Assembly (NCBI GenBank): GCA_002839445.1
Contig: PGYB01000001.1
Span: 282,735-346,734, forward strand
DNA: 64,000 nt
Direction of reading: 5' to 3'
Source: Candidatus Riflebacteria bacterium HGW-Riflebacteria-1
Lineage (GTDB): Bacteria; Muiribacteriota; Ozemobacteria; Ozemobacterales; Ozemobacteraceae
Part shown: piece by piece, positions 24,541 through 54,650 of the stretch
Layout of the letters: every line of letters starts with the position of its first letter
Position numbering within the stretch: the first letter of the stretch is position 1
Notes under the pieces: model-generated
What the model was told of the DNA's origin: nothing
Database searches by the model: none
The model's input: only the letters and a program-made list of their open reading frames with translations
Made by a program: the position numbers and the translations under genes

Positions 24541-24906
24541 TTAGCCGCCCCAGGTAGAGGTAGCACAGCCATGCTGGCTGCAGAAAACTTTTTTGCCGTT
24601 AGGCAACCCTTCTTCGGTGCCTTTTACCCAGTCATAGATGCCTTCAGTTGGACACAAGGGAACACGATTACCACCCAAAAATGGTGTAAGATCAGCAATT
24701 GTCGAAGGGTATTGTTTGCGTTCAATACTATACAGCTCGGCCGTTCGGCTAAGAAGCGCCGAAAACTCGAAACACTTGTTCTGTCTCGCCAGCTCGCGTG
24801 ATCGGCGGAAATTGGGTATGGCTATTGCCGCCAGAACACCAATGATAGCTATAACTATCATCAATTCCACCAATGTAAATCCGTGTTTTATTTTTTTGCT
24901 GTTCAT
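24541..24906 (-). CDS. type IV pilin / GspG-like major pseudopilin (prepilin)
   Basis: Leader MNSKKIKHG|FTLVELMIVIAIIGVLAAIAIPNFRRSRELARQNKC..., C-terminal Cys pair. 121 aa from ATG 24906. The track's long N-terminal extension was rejected. Confidence 0.75.
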   Translation of the reverse strand: MNSKKIKHGFTLVELMIVIAIIGVLAAIAIPNFRRSRELARQNKCFEFSALLSRTAELYSIERKQYPSTIADLTPFLGGNRVPLCPTEGIYDWVKGTEEGLPNGKKVFCSQHGCATSTWGG

Positions 24907-24913
24907 TGACTTT

Positions 24914-24942
24914 ATTATACATTTGCAAGAAATATTTTGCAA
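24914..24942 (-). promoter_or_regulatory. sigma-70-type promoter for the pilin gene, with an apparently leaderless transcript
   Basis: On the minus strand: TTGCAA (24942-24937), 17-nt spacer, TATAAT (24919-24914). The ATG lies about 8 nt downstream of the -10 with no SD. The same palindromic TTGCAA could serve a plus-strand promoter (TACTAT at 24960-24965) for the NHL gene. Confidence 0.35.
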
Positions 24943-25003
24943 ATCATATTTTTTTGATTTACTATACATGAACAACGAAAATGATCTGAAGGAAAATGGC
25001 TTC

Positions 25004-25903
25004 ATGCTTAAAAAGACACTCGCCTTAGCAATGATATTGTTTGTCGGACTCAGCACTGGCTGTGTACCCAACAAGTTCCAGTTTGAGAAAGAATTTGGAA
25101 AGTCGGGTTCGAATAGAAGAGAATTTCTCAGTGCGACTGACATGGATCTAACTTCCAAGGGCGACCTCGTCATTGCCGACGCAGGCAACACACGCATTCA
25201 AGTAATCACCACCAACGGCGACTCAGTAATGGTTGCCGGCGAATCTGGTCGTGAAGGATACAAACTGCAGAGCATAACCGGCATTGGCGTAAATCCTTTG
25301 ACCGACGACGTACTGGTCTGCGATCAACGCGGCAACAAGATCGTCAGATTCGATTCCGCAGGTGAACCCAACCTGAGAATCGTTGACAAGATGAAGTTCC
25401 CGATGGACGTGTGCATAGACCGCAAGGGCAACAGCTATGTAATTATGTCCAAGCAGTCCGAAATATACAAATACGATGCCAATGGCAAGTATTTAGCCAC
25501 AATTGGTGGCTCAGGCAAGGCTGCGATGCTGTTTCCCACATCTATCCTGCTGCACAATGATCACCTTTTCATCACAGATTTTGGAGCCAAGCGCGTTATT
25601 AAGCTAGGTCTGGATGGTAATTTTGTCGGCGAGTACAAAGACAAGGGCGAATACGAAGAGATCAAAGGGCCATCTGGCATGCATATCGACAACCTTGGGA
25701 ACCTGTACATTCTCGACCTTGGTGAAGTTCCGGTTGTTATTCTTTCCCCTGATGGCAAGCTGATCTCGAAGGTTGGCGATTTTGGCAATCAGCCTGGCCA
25801 GTTTCTTTACCCAACCGGGGTAATCGCCAAGTCCCCAGAAGAGATCTATGTTCTCGATAACAGTCGCAACACCATTCTGAACTTCAAAATGAAGCCTGAA
25901 TAG
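25004..25903 (+). CDS. NHL-repeat lipoprotein (beta-propeller)
   Basis: Lipobox LSTGC, repeated ...DxxGNLYVxD.. NHL-like blades. AAGGAAAA RBS before ATG 25004. Confidence 0.65.
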   Translation: MLKKTLALAMILFVGLSTGCVPNKFQFEKEFGKSGSNRREFLSATDMDLTSKGDLVIADAGNTRIQVITTNGDSVMVAGESGREGYKLQSITGIGVNPLTDDVLVCDQRGNKIVRFDSAGEPNLRIVDKMKFPMDVCIDRKGNSYVIMSKQSEIYKYDANGKYLATIGGSGKAAMLFPTSILLHNDHLFITDFGAKRVIKLGLDGNFVGEYKDKGEYEEIKGPSGMHIDNLGNLYILDLGEVPVVILSPDGKLISKVGDFGNQPGQFLYPTGVIAKSPEEIYVLDNSRNTILNFKMKPE

Positions 25904-45606: not shown

Positions 45607-45635
45607 TTGAACCGCAGTGTTTTTTGCTGTACACT
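45607..45635 (+). promoter_or_regulatory. putative sigma-70 promoter of the K+ channel gene
   Basis: TTGAAC, 17-nt spacer, TACACT. The ATG at 45645 is about 10 nt from the -10, so the leader is short or absent. Confidence 0.3.
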
Positions 45636-45644
45636 GAGCGGCAT

Positions 45645-46652
45645 ATGAACATTCAACAGCGCATGCTCAACCTGACCTTCACACTGCTTTTTCTGCTGCT
45701 GTGCGGGACAATTGCCTATCGCGTCGTTGAGGGTGACCACTGGACCATGCTCGATGGTCTGTTCATGACGGTAATAACTCTATTCACAGTTGGCTATTCA
45801 GAGGTCCACACTCTTTCCAACAATGGGCGCCTGCTCACGATAGTTCTGATACTTCTTGGCGGCGGCTTCATGGCCTATGCCGCCTCAACCATTGCACAGA
45901 TGCTTTTCGAAGGAAAACTTCGCGAAATTTGGGGGCTCAAAAAAATGCGTAAACAGATCGACGAATTGAAGAATCATTACATCATATGCGGTGCTGGAAA
46001 AACGGCACAGGAGATCATTAAAAGCCTTAAGAACAGCGCCCCCAGGCAGTTTGTCGTCATAGACATTGATCACAGCCGCATTGACAAGTTGCAGCAGGAT
46101 AATATTTTTGCGATCGAAGGCGACGCGACTTCTGATGAAATACTCATGGATGCTGGCATTGAGCGGGCAGCCGGGCTTGCGGTAACTTTGCCAACCGATG
46201 CCGACAACCTCTTTGTCACTCTTTCGGCGAAGGGCTTTAAGAGTGACCTCTTCGTAGTTGCCAAGGCAGAAAAAATAGACAGTATAGCCAAGTTACGCAA
46301 AGCAGGCGCCAACAAGGTTGTTTCTCCGAACATTATAGCTGGAGCCCGTATGGCGTCGATGCTTTACCGTCCATCGGTGGTTGACTTCATGGATGCTGCA
46401 CTGGCAGGCGACAGCAAGGCAATGATGATGGAGGAATTCAGGATTCAAGGTCAATCCTATCTTGATGGCAAAGCAATTAAAGATGCCGAAATCAGGCAGC
46501 GCTCAGGCGCTATTATAGTATCGGTGCGACGCGACAATGAAACCACAGTGAATCCGCTGCCAACGTTCGTTTTTAAGGCATGTGACATACTTGTGGTTCT
46601 GGGTACTGATGAGCAGATCAAGAATTTTTCACCTTTAACAGTAGTTAAATGA
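45645..46652 (+). CDS. RCK-domain (TrkA-N/TrkA-C) gated K+ channel, MthK/Kch-like
   Basis: 2-TM pore with TVGYS selectivity filter, GAGKTAQEI Rossmann (TrkA-N), C-terminal TrkA-C. Confidence 0.75.
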   Translation: MNIQQRMLNLTFTLLFLLLCGTIAYRVVEGDHWTMLDGLFMTVITLFTVGYSEVHTLSNNGRLLTIVLILLGGGFMAYAASTIAQMLFEGKLREIWGLKKMRKQIDELKNHYIICGAGKTAQEIIKSLKNSAPRQFVVIDIDHSRIDKLQQDNIFAIEGDATSDEILMDAGIERAAGLAVTLPTDADNLFVTLSAKGFKSDLFVVAKAEKIDSIAKLRKAGANKVVSPNIIAGARMASMLYRPSVVDFMDAALAGDSKAMMMEEFRIQGQSYLDGKAIKDAEIRQRSGAIIVSVRRDNETTVNPLPTFVFKACDILVVLGTDEQIKNFSPLTVVK

Positions 46653-46671: not shown

Positions 46672-49600
46672 ATGAATTACCGATTTTCGCTAGTGGTTCT
46701 ACTAATTTTCGCAACAGCAGCTGCTCTGTTGGGTGCCAGCCAACAGGAAATCACACAGATGCAGATGCGCAACAATATACCTGCGCAGATGCAAACACAG
46801 AGCGCAAACACTGATTATAACAGCGTGCCGGCGGCCACAATTAATTCAACGAATGCCTCAGAAAACCCGGATTTTGTGCAGAGCCAGACAAAAGCAGCAA
46901 CGACCAGCATAAAAACGGTTAAGACGCTGGTTCCCTATGAAGACCTTTACAAGGTGCTCCAGCAGGATATTGGCAAGTATTTTATTTTGCCGATAGAAGA
47001 GTTCGAAAAGCTCAAATCGGCAAAAGAAGCCTGGCTGGCCTCAGCGAGCAAACCAGTTACTGCGCCGCCACCGTTGTCTTACCAGATCAATTCAGCATCA
47101 ATAGACGGTCAGATTGAAGAAAATTTTGCGCGCCTGAACGTAACTTTCAAGCTCGAAACTTTTACCGACGCCTGGCATGAAATTCCTCTTCTCTGGGGCA
47201 GTCTCGCCGTTTCAGCGGTCAGACTGAATGATGCGCTCACTACTCTCAAGACCAGCTGGATCGACACCAACACACGTCAGGTGCAGTTTGGCAAGATCAG
47301 CAAGCGCAGCAACATGATGAACATGTATCAGGCTGCTTCTGGCGGCAGCGACAGCCTGAGCCAGAATAACTGGAAAGACACTATGTTTTCTTTGCCGGTA
47401 TTTGGCAAGGGCACACACGAATGCCAGATTTCATTTGTTGTGCCGATTCAGAACATCGAAGACCTCTTTACCCTTCAGTTCAGCATGACGCGCATACCGC
47501 TCACCTTTATCGAGCTGCAGGCAAAGGATTTCATTCTTTCCATCGACAGCAGCAGCTTTAAGGATTTCACTGTCAGCGAGCAGCCGCAGGCAAAGGGCTG
47601 CACCTTCATTGGCTGGCTCGGCGCCAACAGCGACATCTCGATAAAATGGCGCAGAAGAGTTCTACGTGCAGCGATCATAGCAGATCCGGTCATTGAGCCA
47701 ACACCCGACATCGACGCACCCGTTTCAACTGAACCAGCACAGGTCAAGCCCGATCGCGTAACTGCACCCATCAAACCAATTATCTACGCACGTTCGCAAA
47801 CTCTGGTCACTCTAGGCGAGACCGCCATACATTCATACAAAATATTTGACTTTAAAATCAGCAAGGCCCCGGTAACCCAGTTCTATTTCAGCATTCCTGC
47901 CGGGGTCGAAATAGTTTCGGTAACTGGCGACCGCCAGGTCAACCAGCGCATGTTGCTTGAACACGGCCAGAGAAGGCTGCAGGTAGAATTTCAGGCTGGC
48001 CGCGAAGATGCCTGCCAGATCACTATCGCTTATGAATCTCCGGTAAATATGACCAGCGCCACGATAGGTATTCCAGAGGTTACTCCACTGCAGATAGAGC
48101 GAGAACTTGGAACCATAGCGATTGAGGCACTTACCTCAATTGAAGTGCAACCCGGAAATGATGAAAAAGAGCCACTCAAAAAAGGCGTTTTCCCGATCGA
48201 CCCGCAAGAAGCTCCGGTGACAATCAAAGCACGCGCCACCATGCCCCTGCTGCTGGCTTATCGCCACAACACCAGCCCTACCGGCATAATGCTCGGAGTA
48301 AAGCGCTATCAGGATGTGCCGCAGCAGACAGTAGTTGCCGACAGTCTTGAGGTCAAAACGACATTTACCACCAACAAGACAAGCAACTCACTGATCAGCC
48401 TGAACATCCGCAACAACAACAAGCAGTATCTTCAGCTGCAGCTCGCTTCCGGGTCTGAGATCGTTTCGGCCTTCAGAGGCGGCCAGGCTGTAAAGCTGGT
48501 TGCCGGCAGAAACGACGGCAAAGTGCAGATTCCGCTTGAAATGAGCCAGGTAGTGGGCGAAACGGTTCAGCAGAACCTGCAGATATTTTTAAAGAACCCG
48601 GTCAGCGAAGTCAAATGGCGCGGCGGCCTGGAATTCTCGCCGCCGTTGATCGACATACCGATTTCAAGATTCACCTGGTTTCTCTATGCACCAGAAGACT
48701 ACCATCTCTATGATTTTTCCGGCACGGTCAAAGACGCCAGAACGCGCAAAGACCCGTTTTTCTTCAGAGGTTTCATGCGCCTGCTTAAACTGGCGTGGGG
48801 AATCGTGACCAGCCCTGACGCAGTCTTTGGCATTGGCTTTTTTGTTTTTCTGGTATTGCTGATCGTGTCGAGAAAGCTGCTGTTCGCCATTCTCAAGGGC
48901 ATCTGGGAAATGATCTGCGCGATTTTCGGCATGCTGTTTTCCGGCAGAGGTTTCAGGCTGGGCGAACTCATGGTAGTCATCGCAGTAATCGCTGTTCTGG
49001 CGGCAATTGCCACGCCCAATTTCCGCAAAGCGCGCGAACAAGCGCGCGATAAGGCCTGCATGGCCAACATCAGGGTTCTAACCGGTGCCGTTGAAATGTA
49101 TAACATGGACAAAACACCGATGATGACTAATCTAAACATGGAACTCCTGATAAAGAACCATTTTCTCAAGAGCCCAATCATTGGAGCAGAAAAGGACTGT
49201 CGCTATGTAGCGAGCGGTAATCTGAACGAAGACGGCCAGATATACTGCCAGCTGCATGGAAACCTGGAAGGACAAAGACCTTCTGAAACAAAAGCAAGAA
49301 CGATGGCAAGTGCTGATTATGGTGCCAAGTCAATGCTGTCAAAGAGTGATGTCGCAATGGAACAGCAGGCAATGTCAGGCAGATCTGCCGACGCACCGGC
49401 AGTCGGGCAGAAACCCGGCTTTGGTGCCGCCAGAACCCATGGCATGCTGCCAATCAACACCAAATTTGTCATGACGAGAAACTACTATATGCTTGAGCGC
49501 GATCTGGTTATCTGCGACGTGGCCAGCAATGGCGCACTGATCGCCAATTCAACCAGCCCGACAGTAAGAGTCAGTTATCTGCACAATTCTGTAGTGCGCT

Positions 49601-52308
49601 CGGCCGAAGTTATTGCCTTTGTAATAGCCTTGTTCAGCGGTCTCTACTTTGTTTCTGGGGCATTCTACAAATATTCTGCCAAAATCACTTTTGCCGGTCT
49701 GATAATCGTTCTGCTCTCAATCGTAGACTTCAAGATCGGATCAGTCGGAGACAGCGCGAATACCGGCCTCTGGTTAGCACTTGGCGGCGCGTTCATCTGG
49801 AAATTCTTCTGGATACTCAGTAAGCTCAATCTGTTCAAGAGTGATGGCAGCGACCAGATACCACCTTCGATTCCACCTTCGACACCAGGAACGAGAAAAT
49901 TCAGTAATGGCGAAATGAACGCCGGCGATGTATTCGGCACCCGGCCTGGTGCTGGCTGCACCGGCATTAAAACACTGCTGCTGCTGCTTTTCATTCTGAC
50001 AGCGCTGGCGGTTTTGCCACTGGCGGCGCAGGAAACTCGTGAAGTCAGAATCATGGCGCCATTCAAGGATCTGTCAAGCATACTCCCGACAGGAGAACGT
50101 TCTGTAATCATACCAGAGAGCGACTACCGCTATCTGACCGACATCAAGGTTCCTGAAAAGCCTGAACAGTTTGCACCACAGAGTTATCAGTTCGGCTCAG
50201 TAATTTACCGTGGACACATTGAGGAGCGCGGCGTCAGGTTTGTTGCAGAATACCGATTGCAGCTCTTTAACAAAGAATGGAAAAAGATCGAACTGCTGTC
50301 ACCTGAGGTGATTCCATCAAAAGCGAGCATCAATGGGGCGGCGCTGGCGCTGACCCTCATGGAATCGCGAGGAATGGCGGCATACGGCTTTTTGACCGAT
50401 GCAACCGGCAGCGTTGACATCAGCGTAGAATTCTTCGTGCCAATGGATTCAAGCGAATTCCGGCACACCCATCGCTTTACCCTGCCGACACTTCCGGTGT
50501 GCATATCCACGCTGCATCTGACGGTTGACGAAAAAGACTGCGAGGCCTGGATCGACCCGGGAGTTCTCGGCAAAGCAGAGCGTGTGGACAACAAGTCGAT
50601 TTTCAAAGCTATTCTTCCACCAACGGCGGCGGTAAAGGTAGAGATTTACCGGACAACGGCACAGGCGGTTGCTGTAGAAACAACAGAACCTGAAGAAGTT
50701 GAGCCAGACAAGCCGGTGGTAATTGAAGAAAAGACCAGGATCAGCGTCTATCAGCTTGCCATGCTCTACTTCAGAGAAGGATTTGTCAGCGGCACGCATG
50801 TATTCGACATAGACATCAAGGGCGGCAGCGGAATTTCGAGCCTGAGCTTCATTCTGCCCGACCGCATCAGAATACAGAAGATTGACAACCGTCTCATCGA
50901 CGACTGGAAAATCAACGAAGACAGTCAACCACGCAGACTGGAAGTAGTTTTCAAGTCGCAGATCAGGGGCAAAACCCAGCTGACTATCGAATATGAAGAT
51001 GACATGCAGAATCTGAAAGACGAAAGTTATAAATTTGGCGAAATACACGTTGCCCATGCTGAGCGTTCTTCTGGAATAATCGGGATTGGCTGCCTGCAGA
51101 CTCTTGAAATTCTTGCCAATGAAACGCCGCAGGGCTTTGATACGCTTAACCCGGCCGAGTTTCTCAACAATTGGAAGCTCGAGCGCCCCGAAAAGACGCC
51201 TTACGCATTCAGATTTGTCAGGTATCCCGACGGCGTTGCCGAGGTTGGGGCTCCGGATCCGACCGTTCCCGTCAACTATTCAACTGCGGTCGCGACGAAC
51301 AGGTTGACCCTTACTATAACCCGCCCTGAAGATATCAGCGTGCAGACAGCAACGATTGATCGCGCAGAAGCGATGACCCTGCTCAATGAAGACGGTTACA
51401 TGATCACCAGGGTTGTTTATGAGGTTCGCAACCATTCACAGCAGTTTCTCAAGGTTCGCCTGCCGAAACTCGAGAGTTACGAGACCGAACTCTGGAGCAC
51501 CCAGGTCGCTGGTCTGGCGGTTCGCGCCGGCTTTGACAAAGAGAACGGTGTTTACAATCTGCCGATAATCAGTTCTCAGTCTGAGAGGGGCGAGTCAAGG
51601 GCGTTTCCGGTCGAACTGGTTTTCACAATACGCACCGGCAAATCGCTGCAGGCATTCAACCCGATAAAAATGGAACTGCCGGCAGCACACCTGCCGATCA
51701 GCGAATTGAGCTGGGTTCTTTATCTGCCGGAAGGTTATGAGCTGATGCGTGAAGTCGGCAATCTCGACCGCTCAGTAAAAGTATCTGACCTCAAGTTTCT
51801 CGACAAGCCCGATTACTTTTCGAGCGTATCAAGTGCGGTTAACATGCAGATGCGCCAGAAGGGCAATTATCAGCAGACACAGCAACAGACGCAGAGTTCA
51901 TCAGAAAAGAATTTTGGCATGGCCGGCATGCTTCCGGTCAAGTTCAATATCCCGAAAACCCAGTGGGCGACGCACTTCACCATGTTGCAGATCGAACCAG
52001 ACAGCAGACCACCGTTCATAGACGGCATGCTGGTCAACCCGCGCAAGGGCAAGGGTTTTGCCTTTCAGATACTGATGATTCTCGCCGGCATGCTGGCAGC
52101 GTTTGGACTGGTGCGTCTGGCTATAACGCGGCGCTACGGCTGGTTTATCCTGCTGGCTGTGCTTGGCATCATTCTTACTCTGGCGATCTACCTCAAGCTG
52201 TATCAGGCCGACCATTTCTTCCAGATGGGACTGTCGGCGGCACTGATCACCTGGCTGCTGTTCAGGTTCTTCGCCTGGCACCCGTCAGAAGAACAGAAGG
52301 GAGCCTGA
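46672..52308 (+). CDS. giant 1878-aa multi-module protein: secreted module A, internal prepilin-type domain, polytopic linker, paralogous module C
   Basis: Uninterrupted 5637-nt ORF. Layout: N-terminal signal peptide, ~740-aa module, TM, canonical prepilin segment (aa ~754-870), four predicted TMs, a second signal-like segment (aa ~1082), a second ~750-aa module, three C-terminal TMs. Confidence 0.6.
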   Translation: MNYRFSLVVLLIFATAAALLGASQQEITQMQMRNNIPAQMQTQSANTDYNSVPAATINSTNASENPDFVQSQTKAATTSIKTVKTLVPYEDLYKVLQQDIGKYFILPIEEFEKLKSAKEAWLASASKPVTAPPPLSYQINSASIDGQIEENFARLNVTFKLETFTDAWHEIPLLWGSLAVSAVRLNDALTTLKTSWIDTNTRQVQFGKISKRSNMMNMYQAASGGSDSLSQNNWKDTMFSLPVFGKGTHECQISFVVPIQNIEDLFTLQFSMTRIPLTFIELQAKDFILSIDSSSFKDFTVSEQPQAKGCTFIGWLGANSDISIKWRRRVLRAAIIADPVIEPTPDIDAPVSTEPAQVKPDRVTAPIKPIIYARSQTLVTLGETAIHSYKIFDFKISKAPVTQFYFSIPAGVEIVSVTGDRQVNQRMLLEHGQRRLQVEFQAGREDACQITIAYESPVNMTSATIGIPEVTPLQIERELGTIAIEALTSIEVQPGNDEKEPLKKGVFPIDPQEAPVTIKARATMPLLLAYRHNTSPTGIMLGVKRYQDVPQQTVVADSLEVKTTFTTNKTSNSLISLNIRNNNKQYLQLQLASGSEIVSAFRGGQAVKLVAGRNDGKVQIPLEMSQVVGETVQQNLQIFLKNPVSEVKWRGGLEFSPPLIDIPISRFTWFLYAPEDYHLYDFSGTVKDARTRKDPFFFRGFMRLLKLAWGIVTSPDAVFGIGFFVFLVLLIVSRKLLFAILKGIWEMICAIFGMLFSGRGFRLGELMVVIAVIAVLAAIATPNFRKAREQARDKACMANIRVLTGAVEMYNMDKTPMMTNLNMELLIKNHFLKSPIIGAEKDCRYVASGNLNEDGQIYCQLHGNLEGQRPSETKARTMASADYGAKSMLSKSDVAMEQQAMSGRSADAPAVGQKPGFGAARTHGMLPINTKFVMTRNYYMLERDLVICDVASNGALIANSTSPTVRVSYLHNSVVRSAEVIAFVIALFSGLYFVSGAFYKYSAKITFAGLIIVLLSIVDFKIGSVGDSANTGLWLALGGAFIWKFFWILSKLNLFKSDGSDQIPPSIPPSTPGTRKFSNGEMNAGDVFGTRPGAGCTGIKTLLLLLFILTALAVLPLAAQETREVRIMAPFKDLSSILPTGERSVIIPESDYRYLTDIKVPEKPEQFAPQSYQFGSVIYRGHIEERGVRFVAEYRLQLFNKEWKKIELLSPEVIPSKASINGAALALTLMESRGMAAYGFLTDATGSVDISVEFFVPMDSSEFRHTHRFTLPTLPVCISTLHLTVDEKDCEAWIDPGVLGKAERVDNKSIFKAILPPTAAVKVEIYRTTAQAVAVETTEPEEVEPDKPVVIEEKTRISVYQLAMLYFREGFVSGTHVFDIDIKGGSGISSLSFILPDRIRIQKIDNRLIDDWKINEDSQPRRLEVVFKSQIRGKTQLTIEYEDDMQNLKDESYKFGEIHVAHAERSSGIIGIGCLQTLEILANETPQGFDTLNPAEFLNNWKLERPEKTPYAFRFVRYPDGVAEVGAPDPTVPVNYSTAVATNRLTLTITRPEDISVQTATIDRAEAMTLLNEDGYMITRVVYEVRNHSQQFLKVRLPKLESYETELWSTQVAGLAVRAGFDKENGVYNLPIISSQSERGESRAFPVELVFTIRTGKSLQAFNPIKMELPAAHLPISELSWVLYLPEGYELMREVGNLDRSVKVSDLKFLDKPDYFSSVSSAVNMQMRQKGNYQQTQQQTQSSSEKNFGMAGMLPVKFNIPKTQWATHFTMLQIEPDSRPPFIDGMLVNPRKGKGFAFQILMILAGMLAAFGLVRLAITRRYGWFILLAVLGIILTLAIYLKLYQADHFFQMGLSAALITWLLFRFFAWHPSEEQKGA
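48931..49275 (+). other. embedded prepilin-type (GspG-like) domain with cryptic leader MLFSGRG|FRLGE
   Basis: In-frame ATG 48931. GFRLGELMVVIAVIAVLAAIATPNFRKAREQARDKACMANIRVLTGAVEMYNM is a paralog of the pilin at 24541-24906. G-1, F+1 and E+5 are intact. Confidence 0.6.
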
Positions 52309-52310
52309 CC

Positions 52311-53015
52311 TTGCTTATTGAAGACCCGACGACCGATGTAACGCCAAAAGGCCATGGCAATGAACTTAAGGGCGTACAGGGCATGATAATTCCCTTCATT
52401 CTGCTCGGTTTTGCGCTCTATTTCTGGAACTCTGCCCTGCTGCTGCCCATCAAGTATCTGACCGTGTTCTTTCATGAGCTTTCGCACGCACTGGCGTCGG
52501 TTTTAACCGGAGGCGAGGTTGTGCATATTGAAATTAACTCGAACCAGGGTGGCCTGGCGGTTACCCGGGGCGGCTGGCGTTTTATCGTTCTCAGCGCTGG
52601 CTATCTGGGCAGCCTGCTGTGGGGAAGCTTGATTCTGCTGGCGGCGGCGAAAACCCGTCATGACCAGCACATCACTGCCGGACTTGGCATTCTGCTGCTG
52701 CTGGTTACGGCAATATGGGTGCGCAATCTTGAGGGCGTCATCATCTGCGCGCTGACAGGGTTCGGGCTGCTCGGCATCGCGGCTTATTCCACAGAAAAGG
52801 TCTGCGACCAGTTCTTGAAGTTTCTCGGGCTGACATCATGCTTCTACGTGCTGTTTGACATCAAGAGCGATCTGATTGACCGCTCAATCAGTGTCTCTGA
52901 TGCATACAGAATCTCGGAAATGCTTCATGTGCCGGACTGGCTGGTGGGTGTTGTCTGGCTGGTAATTGCAGGTATAATAACCTGGAAAGTTCTTTACTGG
53001 AGTCTTGAAGAATAA
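52311..53015 (+). CDS. M50B-like HExxH polytopic membrane metallopeptidase
   Basis: TTG start 3 nt after the giant ORF's stop, AAGGGAG RBS. FFHELSHAL within the first TM region, about six TMs. The track ORF begins earlier at 51963, inside the giant gene. Confidence 0.5.
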   Translation: MLIEDPTTDVTPKGHGNELKGVQGMIIPFILLGFALYFWNSALLLPIKYLTVFFHELSHALASVLTGGEVVHIEINSNQGGLAVTRGGWRFIVLSAGYLGSLLWGSLILLAAAKTRHDQHITAGLGILLLLVTAIWVRNLEGVIICALTGFGLLGIAAYSTEKVCDQFLKFLGLTSCFYVLFDIKSDLIDRSISVSDAYRISEMLHVPDWLVGVVWLVIAGIITWKVLYWSLEE

Positions 53016-53030
53016 AACAAGGGGATTGCT

Positions 53031-54650
53031 ATGAGTCTGAATCTCGAACAACTGCTGATGCTACGCGACCTGCACATGAGCCTGGACGACCTGATCGAAG
53101 AACTGCAACTGCATCATGCCAACCTTGAAGCCGCGCTGGGCAAGATATATTTGTTTCTTAACCAGAAACTGAAAGTAGAAACCTTCTATGTAGAGACAGA
53201 AGACGAGAGCCTTAACCACCGCGTGTTCTGCTTTGGCCGCGGTAACGACGATATAAAGCGCAAAACGCCGCAGCTTCTTAAAATAGACCGCGCTTCGACT
53301 TTCACGACCCCAGGCCTCTTCTGGGTCGTTCAACCCATCGAGATGGGCAAAACCATAATCGGTGCCATAGGAATGGCGTTTGAAACCGAGTCAGCCCCGA
53401 CAAAAGATATGGCACCTGAAATTCTCTACACCGTGAGCGAACTGCTCGATAACTTTTTCTTCAGCATTCATATTAATCGCCTTAAACACAGTCTGATCAT
53501 GGGTATACAGTCAGCGCTGAAAAGCCATTCGATTGCCGACTCAATCGACGGTGCAGTGTATGTATTGAAAAAAGAAATACCATTTCGCAAAATGATACTG
53601 CTCTATTCAGACCATGAATTGACCGGTGTCAGCAAGATAAACTATCTGGTTTACGAAGATTACGCGAGAGTTTATGATTCGGGCGAAACACGACATCCCG
53701 GTCTCGATGATTTTGTCAAAGACACTGATGGCTGCCTGAGTGCCAATACCGACGAACTCAAAAAAGTGCTGGGCGACGACGATCTTATGGTTTCATACCT
53801 GCTTGACGGCCTTATCGATGAAGACCTGATCGGTAAAGTCATTTTTGTTCCTGAGAAGGGCGTGACTTTTTCGATTTTCTGCCGCGAGATTATTCAGGTG
53901 TTCACCGAAACTCTCAGACAACGCCTGGTCGACTTTAATCGCGAGCGCAACACTTTGCGCAAGTTCTTTTCTGACAAGGTTATTGCCCGACTGACTTCGG
54001 AGCCTGGCTACCACAAGCTTTATCTCGAGCCACGCGACACCGACATCGGCATTATTTTTGCGGACATATCTGGTTTTACCAAAATGAGCGAGCAGATACT
54101 GGTTACTCCCGAGCGCATAACCAAGTTTGTCGACACCTGGTCGAACGAGATCATCAAACGGGTGTTTCCGCTGGGTGCCTGCCTCGACAAACTGGTAGGT
54201 GACTGTATAATATTGCTGTTCGGGCCGCCGTTTTATTCTGGCACACCTGAAGAAATCGCGGAAAAGGTTATCAAGTCAGCAGAAATTATCATAGAAGTCA
54301 CTCGAACAGTTTTCATGATGCCGGAATATTCAGACATCAGAAAGCACCCGGACTACGCGAAGTTTGGCGTGGCGATTGGTGCGAATTACTGCCCGGCGGT
54401 AGTGGGTCTGATCGGGCCGAATGACGACCTGACTGCTTTCAGCTCAGGAATGAATATTACCGCGCGACTACAGGGACTGGCTAAGGCGGATCAGATACTG
54501 GTCACTGAACGGCTGCAGGAACTGATCAGGCCGATGAATATGTGGCAGCTGGTTGGACCGCAGGCAATGCCGGTCAAGAACGTTGAAAAGCCGCTGGTTT
54601 ATTATCATGTAACCAGTCTGGAGAAAGCCAATCAGGCAGGCCAGAAATAA
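53031..54650 (+). CDS. class III adenylate/guanylate cyclase with N-terminal sensory region
   Basis: IGIIFADISGFTKMSE...DKLVGDCIILLFGPP cyclase core. The ~320-aa N-terminal domain is unassigned. Confidence 0.75.
   Translation: MSLNLEQLLMLRDLHMSLDDLIEELQLHHANLEAALGKIYLFLNQKLKVETFYVETEDESLNHRVFCFGRGNDDIKRKTPQLLKIDRASTFTTPGLFWVVQPIEMGKTIIGAIGMAFETESAPTKDMAPEILYTVSELLDNFFFSIHINRLKHSLIMGIQSALKSHSIADSIDGAVYVLKKEIPFRKMILLYSDHELTGVSKINYLVYEDYARVYDSGETRHPGLDDFVKDTDGCLSANTDELKKVLGDDDLMVSYLLDGLIDEDLIGKVIFVPEKGVTFSIFCREIIQVFTETLRQRLVDFNRERNTLRKFFSDKVIARLTSEPGYHKLYLEPRDTDIGIIFADISGFTKMSEQILVTPERITKFVDTWSNEIIKRVFPLGACLDKLVGDCIILLFGPPFYSGTPEEIAEKVIKSAEIIIEVTRTVFMMPEYSDIRKHPDYAKFGVAIGANYCPAVVGLIGPNDDLTAFSSGMNITARLQGLAKADQILVTERLQELIRPMNMWQLVGPQAMPVKNVEKPLVYYHVTSLEKANQAGQK

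Follow-up and report, generated by a model that had tools for sequence, protein, structure and literature searches.

The window analysed here is a stretch of 64,000 nucleotides (nt) from Candidatus Riflebacteria bacterium HGW-Riflebacteria-1 (contig PGYB01000001.1, positions 282,735 to 346,734 of the forward strand), and our subject is a single giant open reading frame (ORF) within it, CVV41_01350, whose product carries a complete pilin domain in its middle (Table 1). A Shine-Dalgarno (SD) sequence, gggaggg, precedes the ATG at 46672, and homologues line up from a shared MKxRF, which opens the signal-peptide pattern MKxRF..hydrophobic..A↓E seen across the family alignment. The publicly annotated protein (P0001, 1859 amino acids) begins 19 codons downstream of this ATG; the NCBI start thus appears, from the sequence, to be 19 codons late, with the signal peptide lost as a result. 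Approximately 40 full-length homologues of 1810-1906 amino acids, with 35-75% identity, were found, and every one retains the pilin. Some of these family members are already labelled 'prepilin-type N-terminal cleavage/methylation domain-containing protein' by annotation pipelines. A scan of species-representative genomes gave 34 loci with the giant gene, all in Riflebacteria/Ozemobacteraceae except for two apparently mislabelled records. Since about 40 independent full-length homologues keep the fusion, it is not an assembly artefact, and no unfused relatives were seen among the homologues of the giant protein. Judged by these alignments, the fusion of the pilin into the giant protein is old and genuine.

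Table 1. Features of the giant gene, its downstream neighbour and the pilin genes of the window. Coordinates count from the first letter of the window; arrows mark the junctions of signal sequences; pLDDT, predicted local distance difference test score.
Feature	Coordinates	Strand	Basis or remark
Giant ORF (CVV41_01350)	46672..52308	+	5,637 nt, 1878 amino acids; same as NCBI hypothetical protein
Sec-type signal peptide, residues 1-22, ...ALLGA↓S	46672..46737	+	Hydropathy, family alignment, SD
Module A, exported beta-rich domain, paralogue of module C	46738..48756	+	BLASTP against module C
Conserved amphipathic helix FFFRGFMRLLKLAWGIVT before H1, residues 696-713	48757..48810	+	AlphaFold2 model residues 56-73; DPFFFRGF motif conserved
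H1, predicted transmembrane helix, out-to-in, residues 716-733	48817..48870	+	Family median Hessa sum 0.24; AlphaFold2 helix 715-733
H2, predicted cytoplasmic amphipathic helix, residues 735-755, in place of the pilin leader	48874..48936	+	Hydrophobic moment, AlphaFold2
In-frame ATG (M754), not a start codon	48931..48933	+	Position -7 variable, no SD
Class III-like junction FSGRG↓FRLGE (G760 = -1, F761 = +1, E765 = +5)	48937..48966	+	AlphaFold2 low-pLDDT loop 756-762
Complete pilin domain, residues 761-867	48952..49272	+	alpha1 763-813 and ComGC_C-type head
Variable low-confidence linker after the pilin head	49273..49440	+	Alignment variability; pLDDT <50
Small conserved beta element (GMLPINTKF...), predicted periplasmic	49441..49584	+	Conserved columns; AlphaFold2 strands, model residues 298-331
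T4, T5 and T6 helices, residues 972-1051	49585..49824	+	T4 strongly hydrophobic; T5 and T6 marginal
T7, internal signal-peptide-like segment, residues 1099-1119	49966..50028	+	n-h-c pattern, inspection of family alignment
Module C, exported all-beta multidomain region	50029..52056	+	
Three C-terminal hydrophobic helices, two strong and one marginal	52057..52275	+	
Peptidase_M50B-like polytopic metalloprotease, intact HELSH	52311..53015	+	Pfam 1.4e-48
Standalone pilin, leader MNSKKIKHG↓FTLVELMIV, ComGC/GspG-like	24541..24906	-	Between Germane-domain and NHL-repeat genes
Minor-pilin-like gene, ...ADKQRG↓FTLVEAVIG	10702..11394	-	Pfam N_methyl 1.1e-5
Second prepilin-like junction, MRSG↓FSFVE	Gly codon at 11903	-	

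A preliminary description of this stretch had placed a pilin with a Gly-Phe processing junction inside the giant protein, and profile searches, alignment to PDB entries and identity over the whole pilin all agreed with it. Across the junction the chain reads M754-L-F-S-G-R-G760↓F761-R-L-G-E765-LMVVIAVIAVLAAIATP, and the translation of the giant protein past E765 continues LMVVIAVIAVLAAIATPNF. Residues 759-824 matched the NCBIfam profiles ComGC (7.8e-10) and GspG (1.6e-8), and the isolated segment exceeded the cut-off of IV_pilin_GFxxxE, the NCBIfam model of prepilin N-terminal methylation; the pilin signature was thereby confirmed, at the level of sequence, to lie far above chance. When all PDB sequences were searched, F761 aligned with residue 1 of mature PilA4 of Thermus (6xxd) and of GspG (5wda). 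Residues 754-867 were 55% identical over 111 amino acids (6e-34) to a standalone pilin of 116 amino acids (P0056) and 56% identical over 110 amino acids, without gaps (1e-35), to the same organism's pilin encoded beside a PilD-like gene, while identity to the standalone pilin of the window was 35%. An AlphaFold2 model, computed from a 37-sequence alignment, showed a 51-residue alpha1 helix (763-813) and a small head with pLDDT of about 90, that is, the long helix and globular head, homologous to known pilins, that make up a pilin fold. Glu5 (E765) lies in a hydrophobic stretch of about 21 residues and Pro22 (P782) is present, as in type IV pilins. In the head, C796, C859 and G863 are invariant and C843 and H862 near-invariant (at least 90%); Cys796, Cys843, Cys859 and His862 (49057-49257, + strand) are common to standalone pilins, and these conserved residues might form one disulfide beside an unpaired Cys, or bind a metal. 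A neighbour-joining tree of embedded and standalone heads did not resolve their relationship: every embedded head sampled, like all of the close standalone pilins of ComGC_C type, was nearest to a member of its own class, and the standalone pilin of the window was divergent, with only 22% identity to its nearest neighbour.

Hydropathy along the giant protein was expressed as summed hydrophobicity on the Hessa scale. Strong membrane segments across the family were the N-terminal signal peptide, H1, the pilin helix, T4, T7 and two C-terminal helices, and the marginal segments were T5, T6 and the last C-terminal helix. AlphaFold2 placed helices at 715-733, 735-755, 763-813, 972-998, 1002-1022, 1024-1051 and 1099-1118. 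The hydrophobic segments given in the preliminary description, among them the four helices that separate the pilin head from module C, were recovered by both approaches. H2 had a hydrophobic moment of 1.37, compared with at most 0.78 for the other segments, and it contains six Lys/Arg residues in P0040, the most divergent homologue; on account of this moment and charge we take H2 to be an interfacial helix on the cytoplasmic side and not a membrane span. Modules A and C matched each other in BLASTP (3e-19 over about 670 amino acids). Module A lies behind a signal peptide of cleavable type, and as module C is paralogous to it, both are predicted to be periplasmic. The chain must then cross the membrane an even number of times around the pilin insert: H1 would run out-to-in and the pilin helix in-to-out, and T4-T7 would add an even number of spans. 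Hydropathy, hydrophobic moment, AlphaFold2 and this parity of modules A and C therefore agree with the order of segments proposed earlier (module A outside, H1, cytoplasmic H2, pilin helix N-in/C-out), and a junction on the cytoplasmic face with the pilin head in the periplasm is supported, indirectly, by sequence and model.

The residues around the junction were compared across the family. In the crown clade, which includes the window, 38 of 40 homologues have Gly at -1, 39 have Glu5, and all 40 have Leu3 and Pro22; among 32 genomes the -1 residue is Gly in 27, Ala in four and Ser in one. The window, with G760, has the Gly/Ala at -1 before a hydrophobic alpha1-N that characterises class III signals. 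The entire stretch from -5 to +9 is near-invariant in the 40 homologues, with Phe-5 in 40/40 and Gly-3 and Arg+2 in 39/40 each, and these three residues are atypical of PilD substrates. The conservation of Gly-1 could then be that of a structural turn, since everything around it is conserved as well. The -1 residue is Arg, Ser, Met, Tyr, Asn or Thr in several lineages and was replaced repeatedly with FRLxE kept (Arg in P0011 and P0033, Ser in L031, Met in P0146, Tyr in P0156, Asn in P0148). Both Phe1 and Glu5 have been lost in L040, L043, L044, L047, P0149, P0150, P0153, P0154 and P0166, which comprise deep lineages and many representatives of 50% clusters. The repeated replacement at -1, together with the loss of the motif, implies that cleavage is not a requirement conserved throughout the giant family. 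Processing by PilD needs Gly at -1, with Ala tolerated and Ser or bulkier residues not, and Glu5 is required for filament assembly and not for processing (10.1101/459388).

A library-wide search with residues 680-1140 against 1.84 billion representatives returned the giant family and many proteins with an internal or C-terminal ComGC_C head, in which alpha1 is degenerate or absent. Fixed-offset classing of the motif in 150 representative matches was unreliable for standalone pilins whose alpha1-C spacing differs, and we relied on inspected sequences. Proteins that reuse the head include P0155, P0161, P0164, P0178, P0213 and P0242. Reading these sequences by eye, from which the domain labels derive, P0161 has four tandem ComGC_C heads behind a Sec signal peptide and P0155 likewise has tandem heads, P0213 looks like a VIT-vWA architecture with a ComGC_C head, and P0242 is Ser/Thr-kinase-like, its only membrane helix looking pilin-derived. 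In such head-reusing, non-giant proteins the G↓F...E motif has decayed, and this group thus appears to put pilin modules to other uses, as anchors or as periplasmic modules. More distant proteins of about 2500 amino acids (P0041-P0051) share the plan of the giant protein, namely a module, a transmembrane helix, a pilin helix and head, about three transmembrane helices, a second module and C-terminal transmembrane helices. Their modules are homologous to those of the giant protein, whereas the pilin head is of another family, the central pilin segment being DUF1559 or PulG-like (DUF1559 in P0049). Glu5 is replaced by Gln, Thr or Val in P0041-P0045 and P0048-P0049 and is retained in P0050 and P0051.

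Partners for an embedded pilin are at hand in this organism: the standalone and minor pilins of the window, the adjoining PilQ/O/N/M genes, and a pilin gene paired with a PilD-like gene in the metagenome-assembled genome (MAG). The standalone pilin gene runs into the 5' part of the NHL ORF as listed (24638-25903); the real start codon of that ORF probably lies further on. The minor-pilin-like cluster spans 10702-15909 (- strand) and is followed by ORFs of 724 and 425 amino acids, which had no Pfam match and may encode pilus-associated proteins. Genes for the PilQ secretin, PilO, PilN and PilM (L010:11265-16198) lie just left of the window, past a chorismate synthase gene at its edge. The only PilD homologue found in the MAG, CVV41_02575 (P0080), is Cys-rich and matched A24_N_bact at 5.6e-32, and an A24 domain was not detectable in it. 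Compared with canonical enzymes, both catalytic Asp residues are missing, VIDLHT being replaced by SVLFVRNEV and GMGDVK by FAWGCLSF. This Asp dyad is absent from all Riflebacteria PilD-like copies examined, and no catalytic A24 domain was found in 546 kb of Riflebacteria DNA, which is a small fraction of any genome. Riflebacteria genes named 'prepilin peptidase' are found directly 3' of canonical G↓FTLIE pilin genes (L014:10001-10729, L007:10438-11205, L008/L009); their products likewise retain the Cys-rich A24_N_bact domain, and no A24 domain was detectable in them. Going by their sequences, the Riflebacteria PilD-like proteins may be pseudo-peptidases or methyltransferase-only, and this raises the question of what processes the pilins of these bacteria.

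Downstream of the giant gene, the M50B-like gene probably starts at a TTG located 3 nt after the giant stop codon, for which there is SD evidence. A gene of this type lies directly downstream in 21 of the 22 testable species loci and adjoins the giant gene at 8/9 Riflebacteria-type loci obtained by protein look-up; it is absent at the P0040 locus, at L040 and, unlike the Riflebacteria loci, at the one distant locus of a protein of about 2500 amino acids that was examined. The intact HExxH motif and the conserved linkage to a putative substrate are the features expected of an M50/S2P-type pair. The idea that the M50B neighbour goes together with the G/E motif was rejected, since the gene is present at L043 and L044, where the motif is degenerate, and with P0011 and P0033, which have Arg at -1. 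Inspection of T7 showed the n-h-c pattern, small residues at -1/-3 and the helix breaker of an internal Sec-type signal peptide, with Pro around -4 to -6 and Ala/Ser at -1, and the segment resembles the family's own N-terminal signal peptides. The candidate signal peptidase I site, A1119↓Q1120, precedes a near-invariant RE[IV]R[IV]MAPF (REVRIMAPF in the window). The second proteolytic step that had been proposed for the giant protein is speculation, for which the M50B-like protease and T7 are candidates. At one locus (L015:5971-11507, GCA_054685995.1) the giant gene is called as two genes. This pair (P0039 and a 745-amino-acid gene) was evaluated as a natural split and discarded as uninformative on processing, as the break is a frameshift inside T6 and not in T7; the locus probably holds either a pseudogene or an error of sequencing. 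Two further genes recur around the giant gene in several Riflebacteria loci, one for a TrkA-type K+ channel upstream of it (45624-46652, + strand) and one for an adenylate/guanylate cyclase downstream of the M50B gene (53031-54650, + strand).

The interpretation that we favour, and to which we give about an even chance, is that the embedded pilin remains within the giant protein, where it serves as a pilin mimic and docks to pilins or to the type IV pilus (T4P) machine. A complete pilin, with a ComGC/GspG-like alpha1 and a ComGC_C head, has been inserted in frame into a giant two-module inner-membrane protein, its leader being replaced by H1 and H2, which would return the chain to the cytoplasm. 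The pilin helix could then insert N-in/C-out like that of a normal prepilin, with the head in the periplasm, and a flexible linker and four helices would lead from the head to module C. Through alpha1-N (Glu5, Gly14, Pro22) and the head, the giant protein would dock onto the cell's pilins or T4P machine, and docking would couple both periplasmic modules to the base of the pilus, where the protein may serve as a last or anchoring subunit tethered to the membrane. We read the segment as a pilin mimic because the assembly residues Glu5, Leu3 and Pro22 are kept in the crown clade, and their retention stands out because the motif has decayed in co-opted copies. Furthermore, the type of the embedded pilin tracks the pilin type of the host phylum (ComGC_C here, DUF1559 in P0049), which is most easily explained by an interaction with host pilins. 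Several points weigh against the mimic. We infer docking to pilins solely from the retained pilin residues and the lineage-matched pilin type, and no T4P genes adjoin the giant gene at the loci examined. The loss of Glu5 in deep lineages indicates that pilin-type packing may be dispensable for the core function of the family, and the reuse of the ComGC_C head elsewhere that the head could be a generic periplasmic module. Finally, the positive-inside rule, which was also computed, does not discriminate, the periplasmic flank before H1 having a net charge of +2.8 and the cytoplasmic loop +3.8.

Alternatively, prepilin peptidase may act on the giant precursor from the cytoplasmic side and cut it at G760↓F761, where sequence and model make such a cut sterically possible; we regard this as a possible, if somewhat unlikely, outcome. 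The products would be module A anchored by H1/H2, and a C-terminal fragment starting with a mature, possibly N-methylated pilin that is tethered to module C via a linker of about 100 residues and four helices and whose freed N-terminus could enter a pilus or pseudopilus base. The junction looks cleavable in the crown clade, with its Gly-1, Lys/Arg at -2, Phe+1, Glu+5, a hydrophobic alpha1-N of about 21 residues and Pro22, and the Ala found in four of the 32 genomes is tolerated by PilD (10.1101/459388). It is predicted to be cytoplasmic and lies within a low-confidence, flexible loop, the genome has pilins with normal leaders and T4P machinery, and the decay of the motif in other proteins that use a pilin module only as an anchor suggests that its retention here is under selection. 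However, residues at -1 that do not permit processing arose repeatedly while FRLxE stayed, Gly-1 belongs to a near-invariant stretch that may form a turn, and the sole PilD homologue found in the MAG is without both catalytic Asp residues. To our knowledge, a membrane-anchored 'leader' of 760 residues is also unlike that of any known prepilin-peptidase substrate. The PilD-type cleavage that had been suggested earlier fits the predicted cytoplasmic site and the Gly-1 and Glu5 of the crown clade, but is weakened by the many lineages in which these residues are replaced. A more elaborate version, in which the protein is a polyprotein cut three times, by signal peptidase I at its N-terminus, by prepilin peptidase at G760↓F761 and by signal peptidase I or M50B near A1119↓Q1120, we hold to be decidedly improbable. 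That the M50B-like intramembrane metalloprotease, instead of or besides prepilin peptidase, processes the giant protein in or near a membrane helix is very improbable indeed. The proximity of its gene to the giant stop codon, the intact HELSH and the linkage at nearly all species and looked-up loci speak for it, but the presence of the gene at the degenerate loci L043 and L044 means that it is not tied to the G↓F site, and operon linkage by itself is no proof that a neighbour is proteolysed. A literature search on Peptidase_M50B returned nothing, and we know of no PF13398 (M50B-like) protein with a characterised substrate or function.

The pilin helix and ComGC_C head may also have been reused simply for anchoring in the membrane and for binding or sensing in the periplasm, with no link to pilus assembly or to prepilin peptidase, in which case the class III-like residues would be evolutionary leftovers or would serve local packing of H2 against alpha1. 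Such reuse is seen in the internal or C-terminal heads of other proteins (P0242, P0213, P0161, P0155), and it would fit the degenerate motif of deep giant-protein lineages and distant phyla as well as the lack of T4P genes linked to the giant gene. Yet the crown clade, despite 41-75% overall divergence, has kept Glu5 within a membrane helix, Gly14 and Pro22, which co-opted copies have lost, and an embedded pilin that follows the pilin type of its host phylum is explained most easily by interaction with host pilins; we consider this explanation quite unlikely. The preliminary description had further raised internal initiation of a standalone pseudopilin, at the ATG at 48931, with MLFSGRG as a 'textbook leader'. 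This ATG is indeed in frame and stands at the leader-like distance of seven codons before G760↓F761, but a product starting at M754 would run for 1125 residues and not 120. Met is found at position -7 in only two of the 40 homologues (Phe 21, Tyr 8, Leu 6, Trp 2, Ser 1) and in four of the 32 genomes (Phe 16, Trp 6, Tyr 3, Leu 2, Ala 1), and Phe, Tyr and Trp codons cannot initiate. There is no purine-rich SD within the 15 nt upstream of 48931, while most real starts of the window have one, so that neither a conserved start codon nor a ribosome-binding site marks an independent gene, and unfused relatives are lacking. With Met making up 2.7% of the giant protein and 4.3% of its central region, at least one Met would be expected by chance in the eight upstream positions in 20-30% of cases. 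The supposed leader is hydrophobic, with a single basic residue, whereas genuine leaders in the window and genome are basic (MNSKKIKHG, ...ADKQRG, ...SRKG); in place of a short hydrophilic N-terminal leader, the junction, at residue 760, is preceded by a hydrophobic amphipathic helix. We find an internal start scarcely credible, and by comparison of the sequences the ATG is one hydrophobic position of H2 that is Met by coincidence in this lineage.

In all prepilin-peptidase substrates and pilus subunits known to us, the class III signal is strictly N-terminal. The entire pilin described here sits 760 residues inside a polytopic protein, an arrangement conserved across a phylum. Were this pilin cut, the reach of prepilin peptidase would extend to internal sites and to polyprotein-like maturation. 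Were the protein cut at all three places, this would be the first internal class III signal peptide, and a pilin tethered by four helices would cap or anchor the T4P base, flanked by two separately anchored periplasmic modules. Left uncut, the pilin would be a naturally occurring 'tethered pilin', able perhaps to anchor or cap the base of the pilus or to sense it, and large periplasmic modules would then be coupled in a new way to the machines of type IV filaments. The finding also draws attention to a broader use of pilin helices and heads, whether for anchoring in the membrane or as sensor modules, and to Riflebacteria PilD-like proteins that lack the catalytic dyad.

In the literature on internal class III signals, Riflebacteria pili and DUF1559 pilins we found no precedent, and the embedded-pilin architecture is, as far as we found, undescribed. 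The giant gene and its M50B neighbour resemble Site-2 protease/M50 systems in that a polytopic HExxH protease is encoded directly beside a polytopic membrane protein, the difference being that the pairing here is known from gene linkage alone. The closest likeness of the insert itself is to ComGC/GspG-type pilins (N_methyl PF07963 and ComGC_C PF26697), with which it has in common Gly-1, Phe+1, Glu+5, Gly/Ala14 and Pro22, a long alpha1, a small head with conserved Cys and, by prediction, N-in/C-out insertion. It differs from them in that their site is N-terminal and the present one is at residue 760 of 1878, in that the hydrophilic leader is replaced by an exported module of 700 amino acids, a transmembrane helix and an amphipathic helix, and in that the C-terminus runs on into four helices and a second module; in addition, Arg takes the place of Thr/Ser at +2, and Phe-5 and Gly-3 are invariant or nearly so. 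The modular pilins PilB and PilC of Streptococcus sanguinis, which have grafted C-terminal domains (10.1101/459388), likewise combine a pilin moiety and bulky extra domains in one polypeptide. However, PilB and PilC have an N-terminal class III signal and soluble, exclusively C-terminal extra domains, and they have been shown to be processed and incorporated, whereas the pilin of the giant protein is internal and, as predicted from its sequence, tethered to the membrane on both sides.

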